Shown in pieces: positions 1 through 37,654 of a stretch of DNA of 37,825 nucleotides (position 1 is the first letter of the stretch; every line of letters starts with the position of its first letter). The position numbers were made by a program, and so were the translations under genes. The stretch is from IMG/VR virus record IMGVR_UViG_3300020044_007934, positions 1 to 37,825 of that record; one strand, given 5' to 3'. Origin of the DNA: a virus (taxonomy: Duplodnaviria; Caudoviricetes). A model generated the notes under the pieces. The model ran no database searches. It had not been told where the DNA came from and worked only from the letters and a program-made list of their open reading frames with translations.

Positions 1-72
1 CTCAATCTTCTCAACGGCGCAGATGTTTTTGTGCTTGCTGGCATTGATTGTGTTTATCGGGGAGGCGGCGTT

Positions 73-288
73 ATGAAACCATCTAGCGAACATTACATGT
101 TAGCCATGCTTTTTACTGCGCTGGCGATACTCGTTATTAGCTTGGCATATAAAGCTAAGCGAGATGCAGAGCCAGCTCGAAAAGCGTGGGAAGCCTATAT
201 AGAGCAACAAGAGCGTGAACGCATTAGCAAAGAAACAATCAAGCTAAAGCTAGGAACACCATCAGAGATACTGGAGGCTATACAATGA
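73..288 (+). CDS. Small early membrane protein (N-terminal TM helix), hypothetical
   Basis: ORF track 31..288. The ATG at 73 follows GGAGG and is followed by the hydrophobic stretch MLAMLFTALAILVISLAY. Confidence 0.6.
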   Translation: MKPSSEHYMLAMLFTALAILVISLAYKAKRDAEPARKAWEAYIEQQERERISKETIKLKLGTPSEILEAIQ

Positions 289-671
289 ATAACCCAGACG
301 ATAATTTTGTACCAAGTGATGACTTTGAGCTTGCGGAGTTTATTCGGGATGAGGCGGCGAAGGTCGCTAAAAAACTGGAGTGTATGACTAAGGAACGCTC
401 AAGTGAGATGGCATGGGAGCGATTCCGCTCTATTCGGTTATTGTGCTTTTCATTGCATAAAGAGCTAGAAGAAAAACACCTTTTAGAGGTTAAAGACGAA
501 GAGCTTGCCGATATAATTAAAGAGCTTGACCAAGCTTGCCTTGAATATAACGGCGAGGATTGCCAGCAGTATTTTGGATACTACATCCGTGATTATGCGC
601 GAGTGCTAACTGATGCTATTGCTAAGGGGTTTACTGAAGAAGAGAAATATCAATGGGAGGCAAGGTCATGA
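285..671 (+). CDS. Hypothetical acidic early protein
   Basis: 128-aa ORF with GGAGG RBS and ATGA overlap with the upstream gene. Confidence 0.65.
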   Translation: MNNPDDNFVPSDDFELAEFIRDEAAKVAKKLECMTKERSSEMAWERFRSIRLLCFSLHKELEEKHLLEVKDEELADIIKELDQACLEYNGEDCQQYFGYYIRDYARVLTDAIAKGFTEEEKYQWEARS

Positions 672-865
672 AATTCAATAGAGAGCATTTTAGTAATGGA
701 TTACTTGGCGGAGCTGTAGGCATGTTTGGTTTGTTGCTGCTAATTTCCTGCGCTGAAAAAACCATAGAAGTATTTAAAACATCTGCGCGTTTAGATGTTT
801 GCAAAGAAGCGAGTGAACAGGGTGTTCGGGATAAATTAAAAACGTGTGAATGGAAGCCGTTATGA
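668..865 (+). CDS. Putative small lipoprotein/membrane protein
   Basis: Start at 668 (ATGA overlap, GGAGG upstream). The hydrophobic segment ends in LLLISC, a lipobox-like motif. Confidence 0.5.
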   Translation: MKFNREHFSNGLLGGAVGMFGLLLLISCAEKTIEVFKTSARLDVCKEASEQGVRDKLKTCEWKPL

Positions 866-1302
866 AAACCCAACAAGAACTATTGCGGCAAATTGAGGAG
901 GCTTTGCGTAGATATGCAAATCCTGAAATTCAAAACCAACATAATTACAAGTCAATGATGAATGTGGATGATACTGTTGTAGCTCGTGAAGCCCTGCCAG
1001 TTATAGATGAGTTAGTACCGCTAGGCAATCTAAGTGATGGTGCGTGTGTCACAAGTGAGCATTTTAAGCCATGCCCATTCTGCGGCGAAAAAATCATCTA
1101 TCTAACAACAGGCAAGGATGGCTGCATTAACTGCCCAAATTGTTTGGTTCGTATGCCAAATGAATGTAACGACCATCTAGAGCTGGTTGACGCTTGGAAC
1201 ACCCGCAACCACACCCGCGCCATTGAGAAGATTGAGGCGTTAGATGCTTTGCACGGGTGCGTAAGGCGAGGTGATGTCCTAGCAATACTGAAAGGGGAGT
1301 GA
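862..1302 (+). CDS. Lar-like restriction-alleviation zinc-ribbon domain protein
   Basis: KPCPFCG...CPNC...AWNTR is the characteristic Lar-family pattern. Start MKTQQ at 862 overlaps the upstream stop. Confidence 0.7.
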   Translation: MKTQQELLRQIEEALRRYANPEIQNQHNYKSMMNVDDTVVAREALPVIDELVPLGNLSDGACVTSEHFKPCPFCGEKIIYLTTGKDGCINCPNCLVRMPNECNDHLELVDAWNTRNHTRAIEKIEALDALHGCVRRGDVLAILKGE

Positions 1303-1304
1303 GT

Positions 1305-1451
1305 ATGAGTGACACCAAAACACATATACGTTGGGTATATGGCGAAAATATCGTAACACTAATATGCGCTTGCGTTTGCGCTTATTTTATATCGCCGTGG
1401 TGTTTTTTATTGCTGGTAAATTTAAACACATTTTCTAAACGCAAGGAGTAA
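1305..1451 (+). CDS. Small hypothetical membrane protein (48 aa, not in ORF track)
   Basis: MSDTKTHIRWVYGENIVTLICACVCAYFISPWCFLLLVNLNTFSKRKE*, with GGGGAG RBS. Confidence 0.5.
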   Translation: MSDTKTHIRWVYGENIVTLICACVCAYFISPWCFLLLVNLNTFSKRKE

Positions 1452-1528
1452 GAAACCATGACAACACCAAATAGCCAAAAGTACACTTTATACAAAAACC
1501 TTTGTCCGAAGCAAAAAGGATTTTACTT

Positions 1529-1870
1529 ATGACAACACCAAATAAAGACCGTGAGGCAACCAACGACCTTAACACCATCCCAGCTAGTGTGCTAAAAGAT
1601 TTACGCGATTTATCTGAATGGGATAGAAGCGGTGATTCGTGCTTTCGCGGGTGTGCAGCACCAGAACATGTAGAAGACCTTGTCCCCCTAATCGAGAAAC
1701 TCTGCCAACCCAACATTGTTGTCGTGGATTTGGATGATTTGCGGGGGCGATTTTACAAGGCAATGATGGACGAGGGTTATCATCCATACAGTGAAGAAAT
1801 GACACGCGGGAACGATGCGCTAGACGCAGCACTCGCCGCATTGAAGGAAAACAGCCATGCTAACCCCTGA
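1529..1870 (+). CDS. Hypothetical early protein
   Basis: ORF track 1502..1870. ATG at 1529 follows AAGGA. Confidence 0.6.
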   Translation: MTTPNKDREATNDLNTIPASVLKDLRDLSEWDRSGDSCFRGCAAPEHVEDLVPLIEKLCQPNIVVVDLDDLRGRFYKAMMDEGYHPYSEEMTRGNDALDAALAALKENSHANP

Positions 1871-2012
1871 TGAAATAAAAATTCATGAGAAAATTGCGTG
1901 GATATTATGGAGGCATGGTCGCACGATTGGTGCTGATATGGCTGACCAATTAGCAGCTTTAATTATGGCTGAAATACTTGGGAAAATCCCAGCATTGAAG
2001 GAGAAACCGTGA
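1857..2012 (+). CDS. Small hypothetical protein (51 aa, not in ORF track)
   Basis: MLTPDEIKIHEKIAWILWRHG...PALKEKP*, with AAGGA RBS. It fills the gap between its neighbours. Confidence 0.55.
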   Translation: MLTPDEIKIHEKIAWILWRHGRTIGADMADQLAALIMAEILGKIPALKEKP

Positions 2013-2266
2013 TGGAAAACGCAGAAACAAACACAAACCTCACGATAAAAGAGGCTATTGAATGGTTTGATTTAGTGGATAGCGATGTTGCCCGTGCAGC
2101 ATCGAGCTATCTTCGTTTGGTTGAAAAACAGATGCAGGCATTAGAATATCAAGTTAAGTCGGTGAAAAAAAACTACAGGTCACAGAAAAAGAAAACCGCT
2201 CTGTATAAAAGCCAGCTTGCAAAAACACTGAGCAACTCGCGCAAAGCCGCATTGAAGGAGAAATGA
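2009..2266 (+). CDS. Hypothetical coiled-coil protein
   Basis: 85-aa ORF with AAGGAG RBS. Confidence 0.6.
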   Translation: MMENAETNTNLTIKEAIEWFDLVDSDVARAASSYLRLVEKQMQALEYQVKSVKKNYRSQKKKTALYKSQLAKTLSNSRKAALKEK

Positions 2267-2269
2267 TTT

Positions 2270-2443
2270 ATGGACGCACTATGGTTTTTGTTGCCATTTG
2301 GTATTGCAGTCGCGAATGGATGGCGTGTTAACAAAGATATAAAAAAGAACGAGGCTGAGTTAAAAGCAATGGGATTGAAACCTAACTATGTTGGCGGTGG
2401 AGCGTTTAAATCCTATTATGTGACTATTATACAGGAGAAATGA
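2270..2443 (+). CDS. Small hypothetical membrane protein (57 aa, not in ORF track)
   Basis: MDALWFLLPFGIAVANGWRVNKDIKK...IIQEK*, with AGGAG RBS and 19-bp direct repeats on both sides. Confidence 0.55.
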   Translation: MDALWFLLPFGIAVANGWRVNKDIKKNEAELKAMGLKPNYVGGGAFKSYYVTIIQEK

Positions 2444-2446
2444 TTT

Positions 2447-2941
2447 ATGGATGACTTAACCGATATGACTAGTGATGTGGACGTATTGAGCCGACAATAT
2501 CAGATACGCTCTAACGCTATTGTACCCCGCGCAAGCCAAGACGCACCGACTATGCTTGAACTTTCCCGCATACGCGAATTGCATTTGGGTATATGGCAGA
2601 TTGTCAAAGAGCGTGACGAACTCCGCGCACGAATCGCAGAGCTTGAAAATAAAGGCATAGACCAGCTTGAGTTTATGCTGCAGCAAAGGATTGCAGAGCT
2701 TGAAGCCATGATAGACTCTGATTCAGAGGACTACGGCATAGTGGCTAATGCAGCGGGGTGGGCGTTGATTAAAAAGCTGAAAGCACCGCCGAGTGAAAGG
2801 GAGATAGAGGCTGTGGCAGAGCAGATTAGAGGCGCGAGTAGTTTTGAGCGTAAGAAATACACAGATTACAAAGTCAATTATGGTGACAGCCTTTGTTATG
2901 CAAAAGCCGCGATTGAAACATATCAGGAGGGACGGAGATGA
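2447..2941 (+). CDS. Hypothetical early protein with RIAELE coiled-coil repeats
   Basis: 164-aa ORF with AGGAG RBS. RIAELE occurs twice. Confidence 0.65.
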   Translation: MDDLTDMTSDVDVLSRQYQIRSNAIVPRASQDAPTMLELSRIRELHLGIWQIVKERDELRARIAELENKGIDQLEFMLQQRIAELEAMIDSDSEDYGIVANAAGWALIKKLKAPPSEREIEAVAEQIRGASSFERKKYTDYKVNYGDSLCYAKAAIETYQEGRR

Positions 2942-3156
2942 TTACAGAACAACACGCACTAGACCAATTGAAGCGTATTGCTTTAATTAAAGAGGGCAAA
3001 CTATACAGCAGCCATGCCACAATCTCCGACACAGTTAGCAGTGCTGGTGATTGGAATAGATATGCCTTTCAAGCAATAAAACGAGGTGACTATAATACAG
3101 CAAAAGCATGTTGTGTTGTGGTTGCTGAGTTGCTTGGCTCGGACGCATTAAAATGA
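2938..3156 (+). CDS. Hypothetical protein
   Basis: 72-aa ORF, ATGA-coupled, with GGAGG/GGAG upstream. Confidence 0.55.
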   Translation: MITEQHALDQLKRIALIKEGKLYSSHATISDTVSSAGDWNRYAFQAIKRGDYNTAKACCVVVAELLGSDALK

Positions 3157-3241
3157 AACTTATCTTCGCCACATGCTGCGCCACGTCTATAGGGGCTATG
3201 TATATGGTGGCGCGTGAGAGTAAACAACAAAGGAGAATGAG

Positions 3242-3361
3242 ATGAGTGTATTAAAAGAAATAACAATATGGTTTATTGCGCTGTTTGGTGTATTTGTTGC
3301 CGCTTTATTTATAAGGATTGTGTGGGAAATTATGAAGGCGGGTTGGAATGTAATCGGATAA
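3242..3361 (+). CDS. Small single-TM protein (39 aa, not in ORF track)
   Basis: MSVLKEITIWFIALFGVFVAALFIRIVWEIMKAGWNVIG*, with AAGGAG RBS. Confidence 0.55.
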   Translation: MSVLKEITIWFIALFGVFVAALFIRIVWEIMKAGWNVIG

Positions 3362-3485
3362 ACCATAGGGATGCCCACGCTTGTAAAGGCTGGGCAAGAT
3401 TAAAGTAGCAGTAAGTGGCTACCACCCCTAATATGACCGCCCCGACTCTTTGCACTCTAAACTAGGGGCGGTCGCCAAACTTAAC

Positions 3486-3515
3486 TTGACAATCACCCCC
3501 TCATAACTTTACAAT
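3486..3515 (+). promoter_or_regulatory. Near-consensus sigma70 promoter
   Basis: TTGACA (3486-3491), 18-nt spacer, TACAAT (3510-3515). Confidence 0.75.
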
Positions 3516-3521
3516 GATTCC

Positions 3522-3638
3522 GTGCTGTGTGCGTCTGTGCGTATCACGAGAGGGTGAGATTGAGGGTCGTAATTAGGCTCACCAAAATAACGGCTATAGA
3601 CCTATGCCGAGTGGGTTACATGAACCCATCCGCAGCAC
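3522..3638 (+). ncRNA. Putative structured RNA (closing stem plus four internal hairpins; cloverleaf-like but not a canonical tRNA)
   Basis: GTGCTGTG/CGCAGCAC terminal stem, with GGTGAG/CTCACC, CGGC(T)ATA/TATGCCG and TGGGTT/AACCCA hairpins. It starts 7 nt after the -10 box. Confidence 0.6.
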
Positions 3639-3650
3639 ACAAGGATTTAT

Positions 3651-3833
3651 ATGCGCCCACCAGAATGGTTAATTGAATATAAAAAGCACCGCAACTGCAA
3701 GCATGCTTGGGTATGGCGAGGTCGTGGTATTGGTAAAATATGGAAAGACAAAAAGCGCTACGAGTGCTTAAAGTGCGGGTCAGTTACGGTTACTCCCACA
3801 ACACCACAACAGGCTCAGGACGTTTTATCATAG
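3651..3833 (+). CDS. Small basic zinc-ribbon-like protein
   Basis: CKH...YECLKCG, with AAGGA RBS directly after the structured RNA. Confidence 0.55.
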   Translation: MRPPEWLIEYKKHRNCKHAWVWRGRGIGKIWKDKKRYECLKCGSVTVTPTTPQQAQDVLS

Positions 3834-3981
3834 CCAGATAAGCAACCGCTACTCGTTTTGCATCGAGGGCGAAGTAGAATGTATCGTTAGCTGGTTGATA
3901 AAATGCCAAGTTATCGTGATTGGTTTGCAATATACGTTCAGCAAGAGCTTTTATTTCGTCACGGGGCGGGGTGTATGTCAT
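3790..3981 (-). CDS. Hypothetical protein
   Basis: 63-aa ORF, ATGA-coupled to the exonuclease gene. Confidence 0.5.
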   Translation of the reverse strand: MTYTPPRDEIKALAERILQTNHDNLAFYQPANDTFYFALDAKRVAVAYLAMIKRPEPVVVLWE

Positions 3982-4964
3982 TTGCTGCCTTTCTTAGCTG
4001 GGGTAGTTGTCCATGCGCCGCACGGCTTGCACTGGTATCTGTGGTGGAAGTTAGCTGCTTTCAACTCATAGCCCTTTAATTCTAAATCATCACTATCGCA
4101 AGTTTTGCAGCGCAGTGTAGCGTCATCGTAAATTATATTGGCATTGCGCTTGCTTTTTACGTTGGTTTTAAGCTTGTTGTAAACTTGCTCTAGCACCTCA
4201 ATATCTTGCGCGTTGTATTCTGCCATCTCTTTTATGGCATCAATCTTGCCTTGAGCGCAGCCAACCCATAGCGAGGCGCTGGTTTTGTTCTTTCCCTGCA
4301 ATCCGCATATTTTAGCAAGGTGGTCTAGCTTGTTACTGTTCAGGGTTTTTTTAAACTTATTCCGCGCCATCTTATAGGTATCAATTGTGGCAACTGGCGG
4401 CAATGCAGGAAGTCCATTAGCGAATAACCTACCCTCAATAAATGGCATGTCAAAGCCGTCACCAAAGTGCGCTATGACATAATCCGCTTGTAGGATTATC
4501 TGGCTAAACTCTATAAGCAGCGCCTTATCATTATATGGCTCATGCGCGATTAAAACCGTAGGCGTTATTTCCCCCGCAAATTTATAAGCCAGCGTGCAAA
4601 TAGATTTAGGTTGCTCAATAAAATCTAGCGGTATCCCCCTGTCCGAGAATACATCAAAAAAATAGCCCTTATTGGGCAGGGTTTCAATGTCTATGAATAA
4701 TTCCTTGACGCGCTTGGGTGTATTTGCTACACTGATAATCGTCTTTCCGCGTACGGGAAGTTGGGGGCTGGGCATGTAGTCTGCCCCCATTTCTTTCTCT
4801 CTCATCTTTTTATACCGCGTCAACGTAGCGCCACCAATACCAAACAACACTGCAAGCTCGGTGTAGCTTTTTCCGCTATCCAGCATCCGATATATATCAT
4901 CTTTGGTATGTTTCATACTTTGCAACTCACTATCGCTGGGGTTAAAAACAATTTCCGTTGCCAT
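3978..4964 (-). CDS. DEDD/RNase H-like 3'-5' exonuclease with N-terminal HTH and C-terminal zinc ribbon
   Basis: FIDIET (ExoI), HFGDGFDMPFI (ExoII) and YNAQDI (ExoIII); HTH-like SYTELAVLFGIGGATLTRY; CKTC...CKPC. Confidence 0.85.
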   Translation of the reverse strand: MATEIVFNPSDSELQSMKHTKDDIYRMLDSGKSYTELAVLFGIGGATLTRYKKMREKEMGADYMPSPQLPVRGKTIISVANTPKRVKELFIDIETLPNKGYFFDVFSDRGIPLDFIEQPKSICTLAYKFAGEITPTVLIAHEPYNDKALLIEFSQIILQADYVIAHFGDGFDMPFIEGRLFANGLPALPPVATIDTYKMARNKFKKTLNSNKLDHLAKICGLQGKNKTSASLWVGCAQGKIDAIKEMAEYNAQDIEVLEQVYNKLKTNVKSKRNANIIYDDATLRCKTCDSDDLELKGYELKAANFHHRYQCKPCGAWTTTPAKKGSK

Positions 4965-5272
4965 GTGCGAAGCTCTTTAAGTGACTTCTTTTGCTTTTTA
5001 TTTACCGTGTACCACTGAGGCTTCACCATTTCGTTAGCTGCTTTTATTTTCTTACCGTCATTGATGTGCTTTAGGATAAGTGACCGAGCAAATGAGCCTT
5101 TGCGGGTGGTGAGGATAAAAGATATAAGCGCAAGCTGCTCGTTATAATGCAGCTCTAAATATGGCGAGATAAGCGAATCAAGCTGATTCTTTGCAGCCTG
5201 TTTATCATCCTCAGTCATGCGTGGTTTGACTAACCGAGTACGCTTTCCAACTTCTCTGATGGGGTCGCTCAT
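4913..5272 (-). CDS. Hypothetical basic protein
   Basis: ORF track 4913..5311. Likely start MSDPIRE at 5272 (GGGGA RBS, ATGA coupling). Confidence 0.55.
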   Translation of the reverse strand: MSDPIREVGKRTRLVKPRMTEDDKQAAKNQLDSLISPYLELHYNEQLALISFILTTRKGSFARSLILKHINDGKKIKAANEMVKPQWYTVNKKQKKSLKELRTWQRKLFLTPAIVSCKV

Positions 5273-5379
5273 ACAGTCCCCGCGCCGTAATAGATAGGAA
5301 AGGGAGAGCAAGCGGTGAGTGACAAAATAATACCGAAAAGGATACCTAAGCCGATTATTGCCAACAAATCTCTAGCCAT
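5269..5379 (-). CDS. Tiny putative lipoprotein (36 aa, not in ORF track)
   Basis: MARDLLAIIGLGILFGIILSLTACSPFPIYYGAGTV*, with lipobox LTAC and AAGGGGGA RBS. Confidence 0.6.
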   Translation of the reverse strand: MARDLLAIIGLGILFGIILSLTACSPFPIYYGAGTV

Positions 5380-5440
5380 AATATCCCCCTTCGTGTTACT
5401 TTAAGTCATGATTACCGTTCAAGTTATATGCAAAAACTGT

Positions 5441-5474
5441 AAAAAACCCCGTGAGTATGTACTCAAAGACGGGG
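5441..5474 (-). terminator. Rho-independent terminator closing the late/lysis operon
   Basis: Minus strand CCCCGT(CTTT)GAGTA-CA-TACTCACGGGG followed by TTTTTT, ~40 nt after the holin stop. Confidence 0.75.
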
Positions 5475-5513
5475 AGAATAAGTGCAAGTGTTGGTGCGGT
5501 GCAAAAGAACATT

Positions 5514-6020
5514 TTATTGTTTCCCCGCCAAAAGAACGTCCTTCTTAGCACTGCCCTGAGAGCTACCGAAATAATAGCTCATCACCTGAATCCACGCCGT
5601 GCCAAGCGAACCAAGCATAATGTTTAAAACGTCCTTGCTTGTGGCGGGTACTTCCTGCACCATCATAAACATAAGCACCCCGAAGAATCCACCTGTCACC
5701 GACATTGCCAAAATAGGAAGCGTCACGTCTTTTACTTGAATCTGGCGTTGCCGCGCTGAATCTCTATCGGCTGCTGATATGCGAACCAAGTCAACTTCTA
5801 ATTCTGCCATGCGCTTTTGAAATTCTATCTCGGCTTGTTTTAGTTTTAGTAAGTCATCGGGCGATGCACCCGCTATGGCTTGTGCGACCTGCTCTTGTGT
5901 TGCCGCATCAATGCCAAATATCTTTCCGATAGCACCAACTGCAAGCCCCGCAAGTGGGCCACCTAAAGCTGTTGCGATAGTAGGGGCAACCGTGCCGACA
6001 ATATCTTTCCAATCACTCAT
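5514..6020 (-). CDS. Holin, 3TM (gene-transfer-agent release type)
   Basis: APTIATALGGPLAG N-terminus, DRDSARQR, two C-terminal TMs ending in YYFGSS. Directly after the endolysin. Confidence 0.75.
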   Translation of the reverse strand: MSDWKDIVGTVAPTIATALGGPLAGLAVGAIGKIFGIDAATQEQVAQAIAGASPDDLLKLKQAEIEFQKRMAELEVDLVRISAADRDSARQRQIQVKDVTLPILAMSVTGGFFGVLMFMMVQEVPATSKDVLNIMLGSLGTAWIQVMSYYFGSSQGSAKKDVLLAGKQ

Positions 6021-6433
6021 CCAACCACCCCCACGATTTCTAAATCAAATGAATCTGGCAACAACGCACGAAGTTTCTGCATGGTCTGTACTGAGCCTGT
6101 AACCATCTTTGCAGTCACTCCAGTTTTAGAATCCACGCCACCTTCCGCAATAGCTTTACCCACGCCGATACAACCCTTTAATTGATGCGACCAGTTAGCG
6201 TTATGGATAAGGATTAGGTCGCGATTGGGTACGTCTTGTAGATGCCAGTGATGCCCGTATTTTTGACTGATGCGCTTGGTGACGTGATACGTCCCTAATG
6301 GTATGCAGCTAACTTGCTGTTGGTTGTTATGCCAGCGTTTTTCAACTGTGTAACATAGCAGTTTTTCGCCGTCTTTTAACTCGCCAAACACGCCGTCTTT
6401 ATGGTTTTCTAAGCGTGTTAGGGTTAATTTCAT
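6017..6433 (-). CDS. Putative endolysin, DUF5675 / L,D-transpeptidase-like fold
   Basis: SCIPLGTY...LQDVPNRDLILIHNANWSHQLKGCIGVG carries the His...GC dyad. Start MKLTLTR at 6433 follows GAGGA. Confidence 0.8.
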   Translation of the reverse strand: MKLTLTRLENHKDGVFGELKDGEKLLCYTVEKRWHNNQQQVSCIPLGTYHVTKRISQKYGHHWHLQDVPNRDLILIHNANWSHQLKGCIGVGKAIAEGGVDSKTGVTAKMVTGSVQTMQKLRALLPDSFDLEIVGVVG

Positions 6434-6497
6434 TTCTTCCTCATTGCTTTTAGAATTTGCCGCGCAGCCCACCAGAATTTTATGCGGTTAAATAGGT

Positions 6498-6656
6498 TTA
6501 TAACGCCCTCGTTCTAATGACGGGTATTTCTTGAAGCATTGAGATGGTCTCAATGGCTGATTCTTTTGCTATTGCTTGTCCAATATAATTGTCAAAACCA
6601 TGATACGCAATCATACCAAACGCAAAGAATATACAAAGTTGAGCGCGGATTATCAT
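6498..6656 (-). CDS. Small membrane protein in lysis cluster (52 aa, not in ORF track)
   Basis: MIIRAQLCIFFAFGMIAYHGFDNYIGQAIAKE...RAL*, ATGA-coupled to the upstream gene. Confidence 0.45.
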   Translation of the reverse strand: MIIRAQLCIFFAFGMIAYHGFDNYIGQAIAKESAIETISMLQEIPVIRTRAL

Positions 6657-6859
6657 GGTAAGCCTTTTACAAATTTTAAAGCCTGTTCAAGCGATGATGC
6701 AACATATATACCCACCGCGATAATACCCATAACAAACCAGCCGTAACGCTCTGTTTTAGACTTGTATGCCTCTAGTGCTGCAATCCTATCTTCGTTCGCT
6801 TTGTGCGCTTCTTTAAGGTATGCAATCTCTAATTCCAAAATGTTATCGGCTACCTTCAT
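6653..6859 (-). CDS. XhlA/holin-like small protein (coiled coil plus C-terminal TM)
   Basis: EDRIAALE coiled coil followed by YGWFVMGIIAVGIYV, upstream of the endolysin. Confidence 0.55.
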   Translation of the reverse strand: MKVADNILELEIAYLKEAHKANEDRIAALEAYKSKTERYGWFVMGIIAVGIYVASSLEQALKFVKGLP

Positions 6860-7365
6860 AAAACCGCCCCCAAAGCTACTAATGCACCAATAATAAACTC
6901 ACCATACTGCGAGAACCCATACCGAGAGCTTACCACATTTTGTGCAGCAATTCCAACTAAATATGCTATAGGTAGCATTGCACCAAATATCACTGGTAGG
7001 AAGGCTGTTTCAACAAAGAACGATGCAAACACGGCATAAGGTAAGGCAATGAATCCACCACGCGCAGCAAGGCGTAGATAGTTATTAGGCTTGCGGTTCT
7101 CTTTGGCTTCAAGGTTAAACTGCCCCCCGAAATAACCTGCTGTGGTGCCGACAAACCATAAGGGAATGGTGAGCAGTAGCCAGATATTGCCATGCGCTGC
7201 TGTAACTAAAAGTCCCATCACTACGCCATACGTCCAGCGAATCCATCCATTTGGCACTTCCCATCCATAGGGCTTTGCGAGCAGCTCACGGATAACCTCA
7301 TTACCCATGCCGCCGCGCAGCCGATACGTTAAACCGCCTATGATTGCGCTAATCAGCAACATCAT
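6856..7365 (-). CDS. Multi-pass membrane protein
   Basis: ORF track 6856..7455. Likely start MMLLISAII at 7365 (GAGG RBS). Five to six hydrophobic segments. Confidence 0.65.
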   Translation of the reverse strand: MMLLISAIIGGLTYRLRGGMGNEVIRELLAKPYGWEVPNGWIRWTYGVVMGLLVTAAHGNIWLLLTIPLWFVGTTAGYFGGQFNLEAKENRKPNNYLRLAARGGFIALPYAVFASFFVETAFLPVIFGAMLPIAYLVGIAAQNVVSSRYGFSQYGEFIIGALVALGAVL

Positions 7366-7567
7366 CCGAAACCTCTTTAAGTTTTTCAGCGGCTCTTTCG
7401 GCTTGCAAGTTAGCAAGTGCTTCTTTTTGTTTTTCCAAATCTTGGCGTAAATCAATTGTTTTGCTTAGAACCTGCACCGCTTGCTGGCATTGAGCGTGAG
7501 CTTGTGCTGGCATTGGTGCTAATTGTGCAGCTTGAATCAAAATGTTTAATGCTTGTTCGGGTGTCAT
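7349..7567 (-). CDS. Hypothetical helical protein (possible fibre chaperone)
   Basis: 72-aa ORF with AGGAG RBS. Confidence 0.55.
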   Translation of the reverse strand: MTPEQALNILIQAAQLAPMPAQAHAQCQQAVQVLSKTIDLRQDLEKQKEALANLQAERAAEKLKEVSDDVAD

Positions 7568-7797
7568 AATCTTCTCCTATACCAAAAAAACCAACCTAGA
7601 ATACGGCAATAAAAATATGTAATTAAACCAAACCAGAAGTAACCCTTACTTATCACATACGCTGCCATTTTGCAATCAGCGTGTTTACGGTCTATAGCCT
7701 GAGCAACATAATCATCATCGTGAGTTTCGCATCCCTCAGCAAAACGAGCCTCAAACCAATCTTTAAAGCCTAGCAATGATGGGACGGTGCAGACCAT
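7564..7797 (-). CDS. Small DUF1353 / phospholipase A2-like fold protein
   Basis: CT...GCETHDDDY...RKHADCKM matches the C-x2-HD-x2-Y...AD pattern, with an aromatic C-terminus. Confidence 0.5.
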   Translation of the reverse strand: MVCTVPSLLGFKDWFEARFAEGCETHDDDYVAQAIDRKHADCKMAAYVISKGYFWFGLITYFYCRILGWFFWYRRRL

Positions 7798-8066
7798 TAT
7801 TCCTCACTTAATACAACATTTGTACTGCCACGGATAATCTCAATCCACTGCTCCGCATCATAGTTTAATTTGCCATAGAGCGATTCATTCATACGACAAG
7901 CGCCTGTAGCAAGCTCTTCAACCATACGGTCTTTTACCCACTGCTCAATAACTTGCATCCATGAATCATCTGTTTCAGGGGCGCCACTCCAGCCAAGAAA
8001 TTTAGCCGCATCTACATGATTTTCTTTTTGCATTAGGCTATTAGTAATTGTGATTTTGTATGCCAT
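7797..8066 (-). CDS. Hypothetical protein downstream of tail fibre
   Basis: 89-aa ORF with AAAGGA RBS. Confidence 0.6.
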   Translation of the reverse strand: MAYKITITNSLMQKENHVDAAKFLGWSGAPETDDSWMQVIEQWVKDRMVEELATGACRMNESLYGKLNYDAEQWIEIIRGSTNVVLSEE

Positions 8067-21767: not shown

Positions 21768-21936
21768 GATATACCTCTTCAGTTAATGTTTTAATTAACC
21801 GCCAACTCATGTAAGTCTGAGATACCTCGATTTTTGCAGGAAATCGGTAAAACCATGCTTTTAAAGGGGGCTACCCATGCTGTCAAAGAAGCTACTCTTA
21901 TAAGGCGTGTGTCATATACCTATACAACACACGCCC

Positions 21937-21964
21937 ATAATATCAGTTATTTAAATTAAATCAA
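21937..21964 (-). promoter_or_regulatory. Candidate promoter for the capsid gene
   Basis: Minus strand TTGATT, 16-nt spacer, TATTAT, with a TG extended -10 element. Confidence 0.4.
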
Positions 21965-28969: not shown

Positions 28970-29156
28970 GCCGTGCGCTTTCAATGCAACCCCTGATTCG
29001 CTCGATAAACGCTTCCGCTGCTTCTATATCCATTTTTAGCGTTACGCTTCCCATGCGGATAATAATGTTTTTATCGTTGTCGAGTAGGGGGATGGGGGTA
29101 AATGGTGTTTGGTTAATCATAATACGATTCAAGATATTGTTGTTTATGTTGCTCAA
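28962..29156 (-). CDS. Hypothetical protein
   Basis: 64-aa ORF filling the gap in the replication operon. The true start may be MINQ further downstream. Confidence 0.4.
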   Translation of the reverse strand: MSNINNNILNRIMINQTPFTPIPLLDNDKNIIIRMGSVTLKMDIEAAEAFIERIRGCIESARHE

Positions 29157-29616
29157 TTTGCGCTTGCGCTTCCTTCAATTCCATAGAACCGCCCCGCGCT
29201 TTTTTCATCTCTTGCGCTTCATATGCTTCCACAAACTCCTTTTTATCGCCATACAGGAATTTGCCGCCAACGGTGCACTCCTTCATAATTTTTACATACA
29301 TTGAGGTTGACAGCGGTTGCGGCGGCGGGTTGATAATGTTCTCAATATCCGCTGGCGTTGGTATGCTGGAGCTTTGCTTCATGTGCTGAACCAAGGCGGC
29401 TTTAATCTTTTCAAAACTATAATCACCAAGAATCATCAAAAATACCGCCGTATGGTTTTCCAATTGCTCAGGTGTCTTCCCATATGTGTTAAGGCTATCA
29501 TAGCACTGTGCTAGTAATTCGCATAACTTTGCTTGGTCGCTAGGATTGGCTGATAGATTGTTGGTATTTTTCAAGCCCTCGCTGGATGGCATCTTTTGCT
29601 CGCTGCGACTTGTCAT
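29113..29616 (-). CDS. Putative helicase loader/inhibitor (lambda P / G39P-like position)
   Basis: Follows and overlaps the initiator. ILGDYSFEKIKAALVQHMKQSSSIPTPADI resembles the loader motif. Start uncertain (29766, 29616 or 29592). Confidence 0.6.
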   Translation of the reverse strand: MTSRSEQKMPSSEGLKNTNNLSANPSDQAKLCELLAQCYDSLNTYGKTPEQLENHTAVFLMILGDYSFEKIKAALVQHMKQSSSIPTPADIENIINPPPQPLSTSMYVKIMKECTVGGKFLYGDKKEFVEAYEAQEMKKARGGSMELKEAQAQIEQHKQQYLESYYD

Positions 29617-30250
29617 CTGGTTTTGGTTGGTATTGTGGCTGGCTGTAGTCAGATTCCCACCTTCGCTGATTGAGCCATGTAGTGGCATGTGCAATGTATT
29701 TTTGTTCTTTTCCTCGAACGCTATCCGCATACGCTCTAACACCTGATTCAATTCGTCCATGTTCAACTCCTGATTTAATTGCTTTCAAATATGATTTTTT
29801 TGCTTCCGACTTACTTCCGTCTTTTCGTGGATAGATTTTCCACAAATCTTCAAAATCCGACAATATGCTTTCTGTCTCTGCCTCTGTCTCTTTACTATAT
29901 GTCTCTGTCTCTGAGTGACAGTTCCGTAACGTATCCGTAACAGATTCGTAACTTGCTGTTTTTTCTTCAATAATAAACCCTGATTTGATTATTTCTGCCA
30001 TTGCAGCCTTGACGGTCTTTTCAGGTATGCGTAACCTAAAAGATACGGCTTCGTAACCAAACCGTAACATGCCAGAGGTGGGGTCGCTATCTTCGCTTGC
30101 CATTAACCACAGCATAGGAAGCATTGCTCTTGCCTCTGCGCTCATCTTCTGAAAAGCAAAGTCATCTAGTAGATTTTTGTGAAGCCTAATCCAAGGCGGT
30201 TGACGGTCTTTGTATGATTGAAATGAAGACCAGTTTTTTATCTTGAACAT
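29540..30250 (-). CDS. Replication initiator protein
   Basis: IKNWSSFQSYKDR..PWIRLH N-terminus, ETET linker, and C-terminal FEDLWKIYPRK...AKKSY...HATTWLNQRRWE domain. Confidence 0.85.
   Translation of the reverse strand: MFKIKNWSSFQSYKDRQPPWIRLHKNLLDDFAFQKMSAEARAMLPMLWLMASEDSDPTSGMLRFGYEAVSFRLRIPEKTVKAAMAEIIKSGFIIEEKTASYESVTDTLRNCHSETETYSKETEAETESILSDFEDLWKIYPRKDGSKSEAKKSYLKAIKSGVEHGRIESGVRAYADSVRGKEQKYIAHATTWLNQRRWESDYSQPQYQPKPDDKSQRAKDAIQRGLEKYQQSISQS
29870..30068. repeat. Probable replication origin: iteron-like CGTAAC repeats and TCTGTCTC repeats inside the initiator gene
   Basis: CGTAAC at 29925, 29936, 29947 and 30030, 30052, 30063 (11/22-nt spacing), flanking an AT-rich tract. Confidence 0.6.
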
Positions 30251-30267
30251 TACGCCCTCCCCAGAGC

Positions 30268-30349
30268 TACCCTATAAATGAATTAGGGGAAGGATAGTGG
30301 GTAACTATCTTTTCGGTTGCGAACCTATCCCCTAAACTGCCTTTCGGCA
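30268..30349 (-). promoter_or_regulatory. Structured cis-regulatory RNA leader of the initiator gene
   Basis: TGCC-GAAA-GGCA hairpin, then TTAGGGGA/TCCCCTAA enclosing GGTT-CGC-AACC and GATAGT-TACCC-ACTATC. The loop is complementary to a downstream GGGTA. Confidence 0.65.
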
Positions 30350-30370
30350 TTAGTAATAATATATCAAAAT

Positions 30371-30598
30371 CTATCGGTATTGCAAGTTTAAATTATCACC
30401 TGAAAAATCCCATTTAGGCTCGCCACGCATCTTAAAACACGGCATAACGTCCTCTGGTGGTTTTTGGTATGTTGACAGCTTTCTGGTGCGGATAAACCAT
30501 TTAACGGCTTTTTTCGTAACGCCTAGCTTTTCCCCTATCTGGGTGGTGGTTAGCCCTTCCGCTCTTAAACTAACCACCGTATCTACGTCTAGTTTCAT
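30371..30598 (-). CDS. Small HTH DNA-binding protein
   Basis: LRAEGLTTTQIGEKLGVTKKAV is a helix-turn-helix. Confidence 0.7.
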   Translation of the reverse strand: MKLDVDTVVSLRAEGLTTTQIGEKLGVTKKAVKWFIRTRKLSTYQKPPEDVMPCFKMRGEPKWDFSGDNLNLQYR

Positions 30599-30599
30599 G

Positions 30600-31625
30600 C
30601 TACACCTCTAACATATCTTGTTTTGCAACATTGAAACGCTCTTTTGCCAGCGATAAATTGATTTTAGCTTGTTTGTAGTAGCTGTCTTTAAGTTCAATAC
30701 CTATCGCTTTACGTCCCATTGATACAGGGCTGTAAACCTCGCTACCTACCCCCATGAATGGCGTTAGGACAACTTCGTTAGGGTTGCTGTATAACTCAAC
30801 AAGGCGGTCTATTACGTCTAACTGCAATGGGTGAACGTGCTTTTCATCGTCTTCTTCCCTTGCACTTCTGAAAGGCAGTACGTTATCGTTGCGAATATCA
30901 TCCCAAACGCTCGAAGCGTAACGCTGCCATATATAATGCGCTCGTTTGTTTGTTTTGCCGTCTTGATGCCCTTCATAAGCGGTATTAAGATACTTCCACA
31001 AACTATCTTTAGTGTGAAATGTTTCGTTGACGTTGTTATAAGTTTTAAGCATATGGTCTAAAATAGGCGTTTCCCCCGCGTAATGCGTTAATCCGCATGG
31101 GTGAGTTACTGGCACTTGATTCTCGCCACCCTTCCTAAACACTAGAACATAATCAGGTACGGCAGTGTAACACTTAGTTGAATCTTCCGTAATTTGTTTA
31201 TGCTTTAAGCTGTTTACCATCGTGCGATTACGAACCTCTAGCGGCTCTTTCCACACTGTAATTCTGTTGTTATAAGTAAAACCATATTTTAAATGCAGTT
31301 TAATAATCTCATGAGGGAAGTCATAAAGGTTATGCATCGTTGTGTGGGTAATAATATCTTGGCAGTGAACCGCTGTGATGCGTCCTGATTTTGTTACCCT
31401 AGCGATTTGTTCAACCAAAAACTCATATTGTTCTAAAAAAGCTTCTTTGGAATCGCAGTTGCTAAAATCATTCTCGCTAGAGCTGTAATTATACAAACCT
31501 GCAAATGGTGGTGAATATACGCTAAAATCCACGCTTTTGTCAGGCAATGTTGGCATAACATACATGCAATCACTATTGTAGATGGCGTATTGTTCTGTAA
31601 TTTCTTGTTGTTTTACTTTTTCCAT
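30600..31625 (-). CDS. DNA amino-methyltransferase (N4-C/N6-A, beta class)
   Basis: Catalytic SVDFSVYSPPF precedes SAM-binding VLTPFMGVGS; also KHVHPLQ and GRKAIGIELK. Confidence 0.9.
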   Translation of the reverse strand: MEKVKQQEITEQYAIYNSDCMYVMPTLPDKSVDFSVYSPPFAGLYNYSSSENDFSNCDSKEAFLEQYEFLVEQIARVTKSGRITAVHCQDIITHTTMHNLYDFPHEIIKLHLKYGFTYNNRITVWKEPLEVRNRTMVNSLKHKQITEDSTKCYTAVPDYVLVFRKGGENQVPVTHPCGLTHYAGETPILDHMLKTYNNVNETFHTKDSLWKYLNTAYEGHQDGKTNKRAHYIWQRYASSVWDDIRNDNVLPFRSAREEDDEKHVHPLQLDVIDRLVELYSNPNEVVLTPFMGVGSEVYSPVSMGRKAIGIELKDSYYKQAKINLSLAKERFNVAKQDMLEV

Positions 31626-31626
31626 T

Positions 31627-32994
31627 TTAAGCTCCTATGAATGATGGAAGTTGCACTGGTTTATCAAATTGTTTTTGTTGGTCTGGTTTATATCCGTTGA
31701 CAGCCTTATTAAGTTTATCAAATAGGATAGAGGCTTTTTCGGTTTTTGCTTGGATTGCATCAACCACCCTTTGTTGACCATCCGAATAAACAAACTCAAC
31801 TGTAACGTCACGTTTTTGACCAAACCGCCAGAATCTGCGGATTGATTGGTAATATTGTTCGTAACTAAATGTCGGAAAATAAACCGTGTGATTGCAGTGC
31901 TGCCAGTTCAAACCGAATGCGGTGATTTTTGGCTTGGTGACAAGTCGCTGAATTTTACCCTCCGCAAAGTTTATAAGTATATCCTCTTTCTTGTCTAAAT
32001 CCATACCGCCTTTAATCTGGATGGCTGACTTATCTAATTGCGCCAAAAGGTCGCCCTCATCGTTAAAGTTACACCAATAAACGGAAGTTTTACCAGCTGC
32101 CAGTTTAACGGCATAGTGACAACGCTCTTCAATTGTGTTTTTTTGCTCAACCCTTACGTCACCAAGCGTTCTAGCAACGTGACCAAACATTGAGAATTGA
32201 TTATCAATGCACCAGTTTTTATCATTCAAAACTTTGCGATTATTGACAATAAGCTCTGGCAAAATATGGCGTGAATCATCAAACCCTAAATCGCTTGGCT
32301 TTCTCATTGAGATTGACCATCCCGCCACCCATTCAAAAAAAGCCTGTTCAGCGTGTGGCTTCAAATACCATTTGTTACCGATTTCTTGCGGTCTAATGTT
32401 ATTTTCATTGTTTGCAAAAAACTTAGACAGCATATCCATATAACCCATATAGCCGAGGGCTTCGCTTGACGTGCCAAGCTCCACAAAGTCATTAGGGCTG
32501 GGGGTTGCGGTGAATAAATACCGATATTTTACATTACGCAAAAACGCCGTCACTTGCGCTTTAATAGCCCCGTCAAAGTTTTTGAGAATAGAGCTTTCAT
32601 CCAAAATCACACAATCAAAATCTGAGGTTTCAAACTTGTCTAATCGCTCATAATTACATACGACAATTTTGGTTTTGTAGATTCCGTCTTTTGAGTACGA
32701 AATATCATCAATCCCAAATTTCTGCGCCTCTTTAATAAACTGAAACGCAACCGCTAACGGCGTAATAATTAAAACTGGCTTGTTTGTGTGCTCAATGTAG
32801 CTTTTTGCCACCATCAATTGAATGATGGTTTTGCCTAATCCAGTGTCAAGAAAAACAGCACAACGCCCCTTCTTAACTGCATACTCTAAAACATACTGTT
32901 GATAGTCAAACAATCCATCATTAAACGCTACTTTATCAATACCGTGATTAATGGTTGAATGACGCTTTGCGGCTATAAAGTTTTGATAGTCCAT
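31627..32994 (-). CDS. SNF2-like superfamily 2 helicase/ATPase
   Basis: DTGLGKT, ILDESS, TATPSPN, GLNWQ and QSIRRFWRFGQ motifs. Confidence 0.9.
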   Translation of the reverse strand: MDYQNFIAAKRHSTINHGIDKVAFNDGLFDYQQYVLEYAVKKGRCAVFLDTGLGKTIIQLMVAKSYIEHTNKPVLIITPLAVAFQFIKEAQKFGIDDISYSKDGIYKTKIVVCNYERLDKFETSDFDCVILDESSILKNFDGAIKAQVTAFLRNVKYRYLFTATPSPNDFVELGTSSEALGYMGYMDMLSKFFANNENNIRPQEIGNKWYLKPHAEQAFFEWVAGWSISMRKPSDLGFDDSRHILPELIVNNRKVLNDKNWCIDNQFSMFGHVARTLGDVRVEQKNTIEERCHYAVKLAAGKTSVYWCNFNDEGDLLAQLDKSAIQIKGGMDLDKKEDILINFAEGKIQRLVTKPKITAFGLNWQHCNHTVYFPTFSYEQYYQSIRRFWRFGQKRDVTVEFVYSDGQQRVVDAIQAKTEKASILFDKLNKAVNGYKPDQQKQFDKPVQLPSFIGA

Positions 32995-33023
32995 ATCGTT
33001 CCTTTCCTAAAAACAATATGGCA

Positions 33024-33054
33024 ACGATAAACTATAAACAATAAACACGCAACA
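33024..33054 (-). promoter_or_regulatory. sigma70-like promoter with GTTTAT heptad repeats (copy 2), driving helicase-MTase
   Basis: Minus strand TTGCGT, 17-nt spacer, TATCGT. Same 28-mer as 28651-28678. Confidence 0.75.
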
Positions 33055-33061
33055 TTTATTT

Positions 33062-33358
33062 TCAATTATTTTTTTGTATCGTTTCAACGTACAGTTTATC
33101 TATATCCGCGCATGATTCCACAATGCAAATTTGCCCCCGCCACGCATCATGAAACTTTTGCTCTGGCTCTGATAGTTTGCGTTGTGAAGGTGGTTTTTTA
33201 CCGTCTTTTATTTCAATCATATAGTTGATGCCATTTTTACCCATCACAATATCAGGGAAGCCTTGCCCTAACTTTGCTGTAATAGCGACACTAAATCCTA
33301 ACGCCCTAGCATAAGCGACTATTTCGGATTGGTTTGCATCGACTGCATATTTTTTCAT
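33062..33358 (-). CDS. VRR-NUC / PD-(D/E)XK nuclease (Holliday-junction resolvase-like)
   Basis: DANQSEIV...GFPDIV...IEIKDG...LSEPEQKFH. Confidence 0.8.
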   Translation of the reverse strand: MKKYAVDANQSEIVAYARALGFSVAITAKLGQGFPDIVMGKNGINYMIEIKDGKKPPSQRKLSEPEQKFHDAWRGQICIVESCADIDKLYVETIQKNN

Positions 33359-37625: not shown

Positions 37626-37654
37626 TTGACACCACAATCACCCCGCGCTATGGT
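37626..37654 (+). promoter_or_regulatory. Rightward early sigma70 promoter
   Basis: TTGACA, 17-nt spacer, TATGGT, with an AT-rich UP region shared with the leftward promoter. Confidence 0.8.

Follow-up and report, generated by a model that had tools for sequence, protein, structure and literature searches.

RESULTS

Genomic setting of the locus

The window, i.e., the whole stretch of DNA that was analyzed, is an entire viral record of 37,825 bases that IMG/VR classes as linear and 96% complete. It encodes packaging and virion proteins (large terminase, portal, major capsid, ejection, and tail proteins) along with a replication initiator, a helicase, a methyltransferase, Erf-like and NinB-like proteins, and an RNase H-like exonuclease. 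The large terminase matches phrog_38 (E 1.6e-99) and the portal phrog_156, while the small terminase match is weak. A replication module on the minus strand (29116-33358; initiator, HTH, methyltransferase, helicase, and nuclease) lies upstream of the packaging genes and runs in the same direction. Neither an integrase match nor a clear repressor was seen among the 66 open reading frames (ORFs) scanned, and ARAGORN found no tRNA gene in the phage genome. The capsid protein is only 22 to 32% identical to those of cultured phages; its uncultured relatives, at 65 to 94% identity, are known as proteins.

A rightward run of small ORFs and a leftward run of structural, lysis, and exonuclease genes meet at a noncoding gap of about 290 nt (3363-3650), which holds a promoter match, the predicted 117-nt RNA, and a 63-nt element upstream of them. 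The features of the locus are as follows.

3367-3429, plus strand: three-armed RNA element of 63 nt (fold z -2.7; 1/200 shuffles as good)
3435-3473, either strand: perfect inverted repeat, G+C rich, with 9-bp arms and a 21-nt loop; its end lies 12 nt ahead of the -35 box
3486-3515, plus strand: sigma-70-type promoter match (11/12; hexamers at 3486-3491 and 3510-3515, 18-nt spacer)
3522-3638, plus strand: predicted stem-closed multi-hairpin 5′ domain of about 117 nt
3565-3568 with 3599-3602, plus strand: GGUC/GACC loop-loop complement, extending to 5 bp with one G-U
3642-3645, plus strand: Shine-Dalgarno (SD)-like AGGA, separated by 3 nt from the closing stem and by 5 nt from the ATG at 3651
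3651-3833, plus strand: basic orphan ORF of 60 aa that likely encodes a small zinc finger followed by a C-terminal tail (C16-x-H18, C39-x2-C42)
3790-3981, minus strand: orphan ORF of 63 aa whose start overlaps the exonuclease stop codon

A sole high-scoring promoter match precedes the 117-nt domain

The TTGACA-18-TACAAT promoter proposed in an earlier, sequence-only reading of this DNA was confirmed in both its hexamers and its spacer, and it is the sole 11/12 sigma-70 match among 14 sites scoring at least 10/12 in the 37.8 kb. Its rank is what counts, since sigma-70 scans yield many chance sites at 9/12 (12 found in positions 1-8000 versus 16.6 expected). Judging from this match, the site likely drives a transcript, which the usual promoter spacing would start near 3522. 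The promoter faces the single ORF at 3651-3833 and then convergent genes. The other near-consensus promoters, at 37626 (plus strand) and 27450 (minus strand), reach an SD-like site and an ATG within about 30 nt, so a leader of 129 nt is atypical in this phage. One 151-nt piece from run X1 covers 3432-3578 with one difference, which is too small a sample to inform habitat or conservation.

The predicted fold is stem closed, and its distinction is moderate

The 8-bp closing stem described earlier (3522-3529/3631-3638) was recovered with pair probabilities of 0.88 to 1.0 when 3522-3640 was folded, and together with four hairpins it makes up fold A. Two of the hairpins already described, at 3591-3609 and 3612-3628, also held up (3591-3594/3606-3609, probability 0.94 to 0.99; 3611-3617/3623-3629, probability 0.86 to 1.0, i.e., at 3611-3629 for the latter). 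The stem claimed at 3553-3583 reached a pair probability of 0.57 and is absent from the minimum-energy fold, and the supposed weak hairpin at 3534-3549 proved to be only a suboptimal alternative to one at 3530-3543.

The most telling feature of the domain is that its closing stem begins at the expected transcription start. The coordinates of this coincidence, which had been pointed out before, are correct, with the start near 3522 being itself deduced from the promoter. By post hoc criteria, a stem with 7 bp or more, starting from the first base and spanning 80 nt or more, arose in 11/1000 dinucleotide shuffles, and the same stem plus at least three hairpins in 5/1000. The folding energy of 3522-3640 is -40.9 kcal/mol (z -2.3; 4/200 shuffles as good); separate shuffles of 3522-3638 gave z -1.9 (9/200 as good), against -1.0 for the opposite strand. 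Its raw energy ranks 4 of 944 intervals across the genome, and a z of -2 or lower was found in 96/944 of these intervals (a noisy estimate, with 14 shuffles each). We regard the predicted fold as only moderately unusual: the anatomy given in the sequence-only reading is real, but with a z of about -2 the structure is weaker overall than had been stated.

The 5′ part of the domain is G/U-rich and offers several pairing registers. In fold B, only 2.1 kcal/mol above fold A, the closing stem slips toward the SD and reaches about 3640, 3533-3539 pairs with 3595-3601, and the GACC hairpin is destroyed. Fold B takes over when the RNA begins one base further on or continues to about 3690; with the start moved to 3523, the probability of the fold A closing stem drops to 0.04 to 0.08 (ends at 3642-3655). 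Since distant, nearly equal rival folds occur in 96/300 shuffles, fold B weakens the earlier structure without showing a switch, and bistability was rejected as a sign of one.

The GGUC/GACC complement, previously taken for kissing loops, is present but occurs at chance level and is lost in fold B. A 4-bp loop-loop complement arose in 13% (narrowest loops), 33%, or 54% (widest loops) of four-loop shuffles, corresponding to p 0.13 to 0.54 for four Watson-Crick pairs and 0.36 to 0.76 with G-U permitted. The loop-loop pair plays no part in the leader reading that we favor below.

Beyond the closing stem, the AGGA at 3642-3645 lies where a ribosome-binding site had been claimed and is predicted to be unpaired (probability 0.93 to 0.99). 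Opening 3642-3646 would cost 0.6 to 0.8 kcal/mol, versus 9 to 11 kcal/mol for 3631-3663, the 30S footprint, which overlaps the closing stem. No terminator-like site is listed between 3638 and 3651.

The downstream ORF encodes a small basic protein likely to bind zinc

The ORF is preceded by a good SD. Its 60-aa protein has a pI of 9.9, with 13 K+R versus 5 D+E, and its candidate metal ligands are three cysteines and one histidine (C16, H18, C39, and C42). From this motif and weak profile matches (phrog_7696, E 0.0035; NF033497, E 0.0036; DUF7129, E 0.007; TIGR04104, E 0.034), the protein likely binds zinc; the "zinc ribbon" of the earlier reading retains the motif and these matches, but with three Cys and one His, and with the zinc itself deduced. 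Its protein language-model recognition score in the atlas, 2475, is typical of real proteins, and its language-model look-alikes (62 to 66 aa, viral or unrecorded, at 0.91) have no common family. We found no homologue sharing sequence words with it, and two loci with 12- to 13-residue matches were discarded as spurious. Among 1.84 billion proteins, three matches were returned, all of them long multi-stretch proteins, and the exact 60-aa sequence is not a called gene in a collection of 15 billion proteins. A PDB sequence search gave nothing below E 0.3. A low-confidence single-sequence structure model (pLDDT 57) has three short strands and a tail helix, and Foldseek found no match to it at E≤0.001.

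The 63-aa ORF on the minus strand and the 60-aa ORF overlap at their 3′ ends, over the last 44 nt of the latter, which leaves one gene in the unit served by the promoter. Given its start over the exonuclease stop codon, the 63-aa ORF is likely translationally coupled to the exonuclease gene. It matches no Pfam or NCBIfam family and has one weak PADLOC match (E 0.023).

The zinc finger Com of phage Mu (62 aa) activates translation and binds to a hairpin in the mRNA (PMC6483171). Both it and the 60-aa protein are small, basic, and of zinc-finger type, with a C-terminal tail, and both are associated with a structured initiation region next to them (PMC6483171). However, Com has CCCC ligands and activates another gene, mom, whereas the 60-aa protein has C-H-C-C and the structure precedes its own gene. 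No Com-family Pfam match to the 60-aa protein was found at E≤1 (DUF7129 only), and membership of the Mu Com family was rejected on the three cysteines and the lack of a family-profile match.

No relative of the 117-nt RNA was found in the collections searched

Rfam yielded no match in the window at gathering scores. At E≤10, the 117-nt element drew nothing but noise from wcaG, a snoRNA, and RT-13, well short of gathering scores, and the curated Rfam 15 models of riboswitches and self-cleaving ribozymes matched neither it nor the 63-nt element. The likeness to wcaG (RF01761), a cis-element of marine phages and cyanophages (PMC2864571, PMC9964418), is limited to a weak match on the strand opposite to the promoter; at 16 to 17.5 bits versus a gathering score of 42, and with both repeated hairpins unmatched, units that the wcaG RNA of contig L282 (see below) does have, it was rejected.

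Against 50,697 phage records, blastn returned nothing or three 24- to 25-nt pieces at E≥1, and against plasmids one 40-nt piece (E 0.1). No exact 19-mer of the 117-nt RNA occurs in IMG/VR. A pattern for its 3′ end selected 18 IMG/VR loci, only one of which (L052, the 5′ region of an apparent single-stranded RNA phage) also carried the 5′ strand, in a different fold. Another of them, L058 (covariance model E 0.15), lacks most arms and was rejected. A promoter-plus-5′ pattern gave about 160 stretches, and none of the 120 compared with the covariance model matched it at E≤1. This model, R1, was built from a single sequence and has low power; it found nothing in 33 viral records (only 4 of them at least 90% complete), in three metagenome-assembled genomes (MAGs) holding capsid relatives, or in two phages holding the 63-nt element. 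Its one match among 151 bacterial genomes (E 0.013) lies inside a coding frame, has many broken pairs, and was set aside. The capsid relatives compared (48 to 81% identity) are mostly fragments that do not reach this locus, and the closest ones are known only as proteins: an exonuclease (P0002) at 93% identity from a 9.9-kb contig, and capsid proteins (P0043 to P0048) at 87 to 94% from contigs of up to 38 kb. The failure to find homologues is thus weak evidence of absence. Our literature search found no published description of the 117-nt or the 63-nt element; in the portion of the PMC10690425 supplements searched with one motif, no match was found, and either element could be among the ten thousand candidate viral RNAs listed there.

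As a separate observation, three near-identical IMG/VR loci (L096, L109, and L162; match at 601-642) combine a consensus promoter with a leader that folds strongly, at about -56 kcal/mol for 125 nt, and is unrelated to the 3522-3638 domain.

A better-folding stretch upstream contains a 63-nt element

The sequence-only reading overlooked the region before the promoter: 3363-3485 folds better than the 117-nt domain (z -3.9; 0/200 shuffles as good). In its first part, the 63-nt element, a 7-bp stem closes off a variable hairpin, an A-rich linker, and a second stem, 5 bp long, which stacks directly on the first. Such 7+5 stacked stems recall the top half of a tRNA. The inverted repeat at 3435-3473 has no U-tract on either strand and is not listed as terminator-like; it may act in pausing, processing, or stabilization. 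At E≤10, Rfam gave nothing over the 63-nt element, and at the hairpin before the promoter only weak Pab91 and mir-5681 matches, far below gathering scores; the look-alikes of the element fit no Rfam family either.

Two look-alikes were retained.

L008, 1190-1273, plus strand: blastn E 0.004; same closing stem, longer middle arm
L282, 1556-1497, minus strand: directly after tRNA-Asn, ending 5 nt before tRNA-Glu

The L008 element ends 34 nt upstream of an ORF that we take to be the large subunit of ribonucleotide reductase. A pattern scan for the 63-nt element selected 112 loci, about 75 of them distinct; among 74 distinct matches, three had a perfect 7-bp upstream partner and five the loop signature, and only L230 (the L008 site) and L282 had both. 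L282 is a 173-kb phage contig in which the tRNA-Glu is followed by a true wcaG RNA. Between the window and L282, two closing-stem pairs are changed on both sides (compensatory) and one mismatch is repaired; this signal from two sequences is not significant (131/500 shuffles), yet it beats all slid controls. Overall, the element was found in phage contigs of 38, 64, and 173 kb, in three different gene contexts, and at lengths of 63 to 84 nt. It was found in 0/151 bacterial genomes, and GenBank phages gave only chance pieces of 21 to 26 nt.

Model R2 was built from the window and L282, and L008 was counted as a look-alike on blastn and inspection; on the L008 record, R2 recovers only the 3′ hairpin (E 0.37), missing the full element because of the longer middle arm. 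Three other loci were dropped: L285 (antisense within an RNA-virus frame, without the closing stem), L278 (distant partner only), and L020 (coding). The last is a phage-like contig that shares the exonuclease and phrog_1544 genes, and its 273-aa ORF (2992-2171, minus strand) is, by eye, presumably a short tryptophanyl-tRNA synthetase.

With three examples, two of which came out of a pattern modeled on the first pair, the 63-nt element is on present sequence comparisons a lead and not a family. T4 RNA C and RNA D are small stable RNAs in phage tRNA arrays, and the L282 look-alike, filling a tRNA-tRNA spacer, is similarly placed; the 63-nt element, for its part, has no Rfam family, and the phage in the window has no tRNA genes. 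The element is a better-supported and more tractable lead than the 117-nt domain, short enough to synthesize and probe, and it offers a handle on unnamed small RNAs in phage tRNA arrays. The wcaG RNA of L282 (1419-1320, minus strand; gathering level, 47 bits) starts at the end of the tRNA-Glu within the tRNA array and is not directly ahead of a gene, which is odd given its "cis-regulatory" label.

DISCUSSION

We favor, at somewhat less than even confidence, the reading that the 117-nt domain is a structured 5′ leader with a protective role, to which its own protein perhaps binds. The best sigma-70-type promoter match of the genome would drive a one-gene early transcript, the first ~117 nt of which would fold into a stem-clamped multi-hairpin leader shielding the 5′ end of the message. 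Stems at the 5′ terminus protect the 5′ ends of RNAs, and such protection is suggested here because the first nucleotide is paired; modulation of ribosome loading is suggested because the closing stem lies in the 30S footprint. RNA and ORF should share a transcript, as no terminator-like site separates 3638 from 3651 and the SD follows the stem by 3 nt. The basic, likely zinc-binding 60-aa product might then bind the leader and tune its own translation, as an analogy with Mu Com would have it, and a trimmed remnant of ~120 nt may accumulate as a by-product. We infer promoter use, protection, binding, and regulation alike.

The leader reading draws on the sole 11/12 promoter, the start-anchored stem seen in 11/1000 shuffles, the energy rank of 4/944, and an SD that is free within a costly 3631-3663. 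It also draws on a basic 60-aa protein with weak matches to small zinc-finger models, for which Mu Com provides a precedent (PMC6483171). On the other side, no homologue means no covariation and no conserved RNA-ORF linkage, a z of about -2 is matched by 96/944 intervals, no positive sign of a switch was found, no sequestration of the SD is predicted, and the orphan ORF lacks a Com-family Pfam match and has CHCC in place of the CCCC of Com.

A stand-alone small stable RNA appears possible but rather unlikely. The transcript would be cut in the AU-rich stretch past the stem and trimmed to a clamped trans-acting RNA of ~120 nt. Perhaps together with the zinc protein, this RNA may decoy a host protein involved in RNA binding or defense, or provide a scaffold for it; on this view, the 290-nt gap would be a cassette of two RNAs in a phage that lacks tRNA genes. 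On one point this account fares better than the leader, because a simple 5′ stabilizer needs one hairpin, not five. It is also in keeping with the terminal stem at the expected start, with an upstream neighbor that resembles a portable small RNA and has one look-alike filling a tRNA spacer, and with a 129-nt leader where the promoters at 37626 (plus strand) and 27450 (minus strand) have about 30 nt. Transcripts that are both small RNA and mRNA exist in prophages, as described for IsrK of Gifsy-1 (PMC4825925). Like the 117-nt domain, IsrK follows the order of promoter, structured RNA, and ORF in one transcript, and alternative folds, predicted here, are named there also; IsrK, however, has its own terminator and a short isoform that activates the long one (PMC4825925), whereas the 117-nt domain has no terminator seen, an SD that is not sequestered, and no Rfam match. 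The lack of a terminator, of a homologue, of any Rfam or tRNA resemblance, and of a target in the phage's own genome speaks against a small RNA.

Less probable still is a neutral fold, in which the promoter and the ORF are real and the structure of the leader is incidental. A z of about -2 is common in this genome, no homologue was found, and the G/U-rich, multi-register 5′ part lets fold A collapse if the start is 3523. An incidental structure is harder to reconcile with a start-site stem in only 11/1000 shuffles, a top-four energy, and the unusual length of the leader that follows the strongest promoter match.

A more elaborate proposal, to which we attach little probability, takes the 290-nt gap as a two-RNA cassette, in which a portable 63-nt half-tRNA-like RNA, present in other phages within tRNA arrays, would lie beside the 117-nt clamped RNA, and the latter with its zinc protein would form an early ribonucleoprotein decoy against host RNA-sensing or tRNA-cutting defense.

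P4 CI RNA is a small multi-arm phage RNA with a closing stem, a description that also fits P1/P7 C4 and the 117-nt domain. An antisense or immunity RNA of this kind, with loops acting on phage or host messages, would suit the multi-arm shape, the open loops, and a promoter that faces the leftward operon, but we consider it very unlikely. The analogy, raised in the earlier reading, fails because no C4-family model matches even at E≤10 and no target in the phage's own genome rises above chance: exact complements in the rest of the genome reach no more than 12 nt (five are of at least 10 nt), and the best loop duplexes with 69 start regions were matched by 90 to 163 of 200 shuffles. No integrase, moreover, was found among the 66 ORFs scanned. 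C4 is cut by RNase P from a longer precursor to ~77 nt, and its loops pair with targets (PMC5320573); the 117-nt RNA is longer and seems to begin at its promoter.

Still further down, a degenerate tRNA or tRNA mimic is highly improbable: the terminal stem and the hairpin abutting its 3′ strand loosely recall an acceptor plus T arm, but ARAGORN found no tRNA, and no tRNA-clan model matched at E≤10. A tRNA sets a 7-bp acceptor on a 5-bp T stem, whereas the 117-nt domain has stems of 8 and 7 bp with a 1-nt gap, a 5-nt loop, and no CCA. A tRNA or tmRNA was rejected on these searches and this geometry, in agreement with the earlier remark that the domain is not a canonical tRNA and at odds with the tRNA mimic suggested alongside it. 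Hardly any credence is left for an RNA that oligomerizes through its GGUC/GACC loops like phi29 pRNA, the other analogy put forward, which shares with the domain a similar length (domain I of pRNA is 117 nt; PMC5066667) and two loops with complementary 4-mers but is a three-way and not a five-way junction, has no Rfam match here, and has its loop complement here only at chance level; according to PMC5066667, only phi29-like motors have a pRNA, and other phages use the large terminase in its place, and this phage carries a large terminase (phrog_38), a portal, and a weak small terminase match.

Of the undescribed phage noncoding RNA or riboregulator first proposed, what persists is a family-less, stem-closed RNA ahead of a plausible small gene, while the kissing loops and the pRNA, C4/CI, and tRNA comparisons are unsupported. 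We regard the 117-nt domain as an unlisted candidate of a known kind, either a structured phage leader or a small RNA. As nothing more than a structured leader, it would be a further instance of a small phage protein controlled at the RNA level, and of minor importance; as a released stable RNA, or as a partner of the zinc protein, it would represent an unlisted phage RNA-protein module.

Elsewhere in the genome, the gap at 21770-21960 separates the likely scaffold gene from the capsid gene. In a noisy scan, both of its strands fold well (z about -3.1 to -3.3), and a 10/12 promoter match lies inside it at 21886 on the minus strand.
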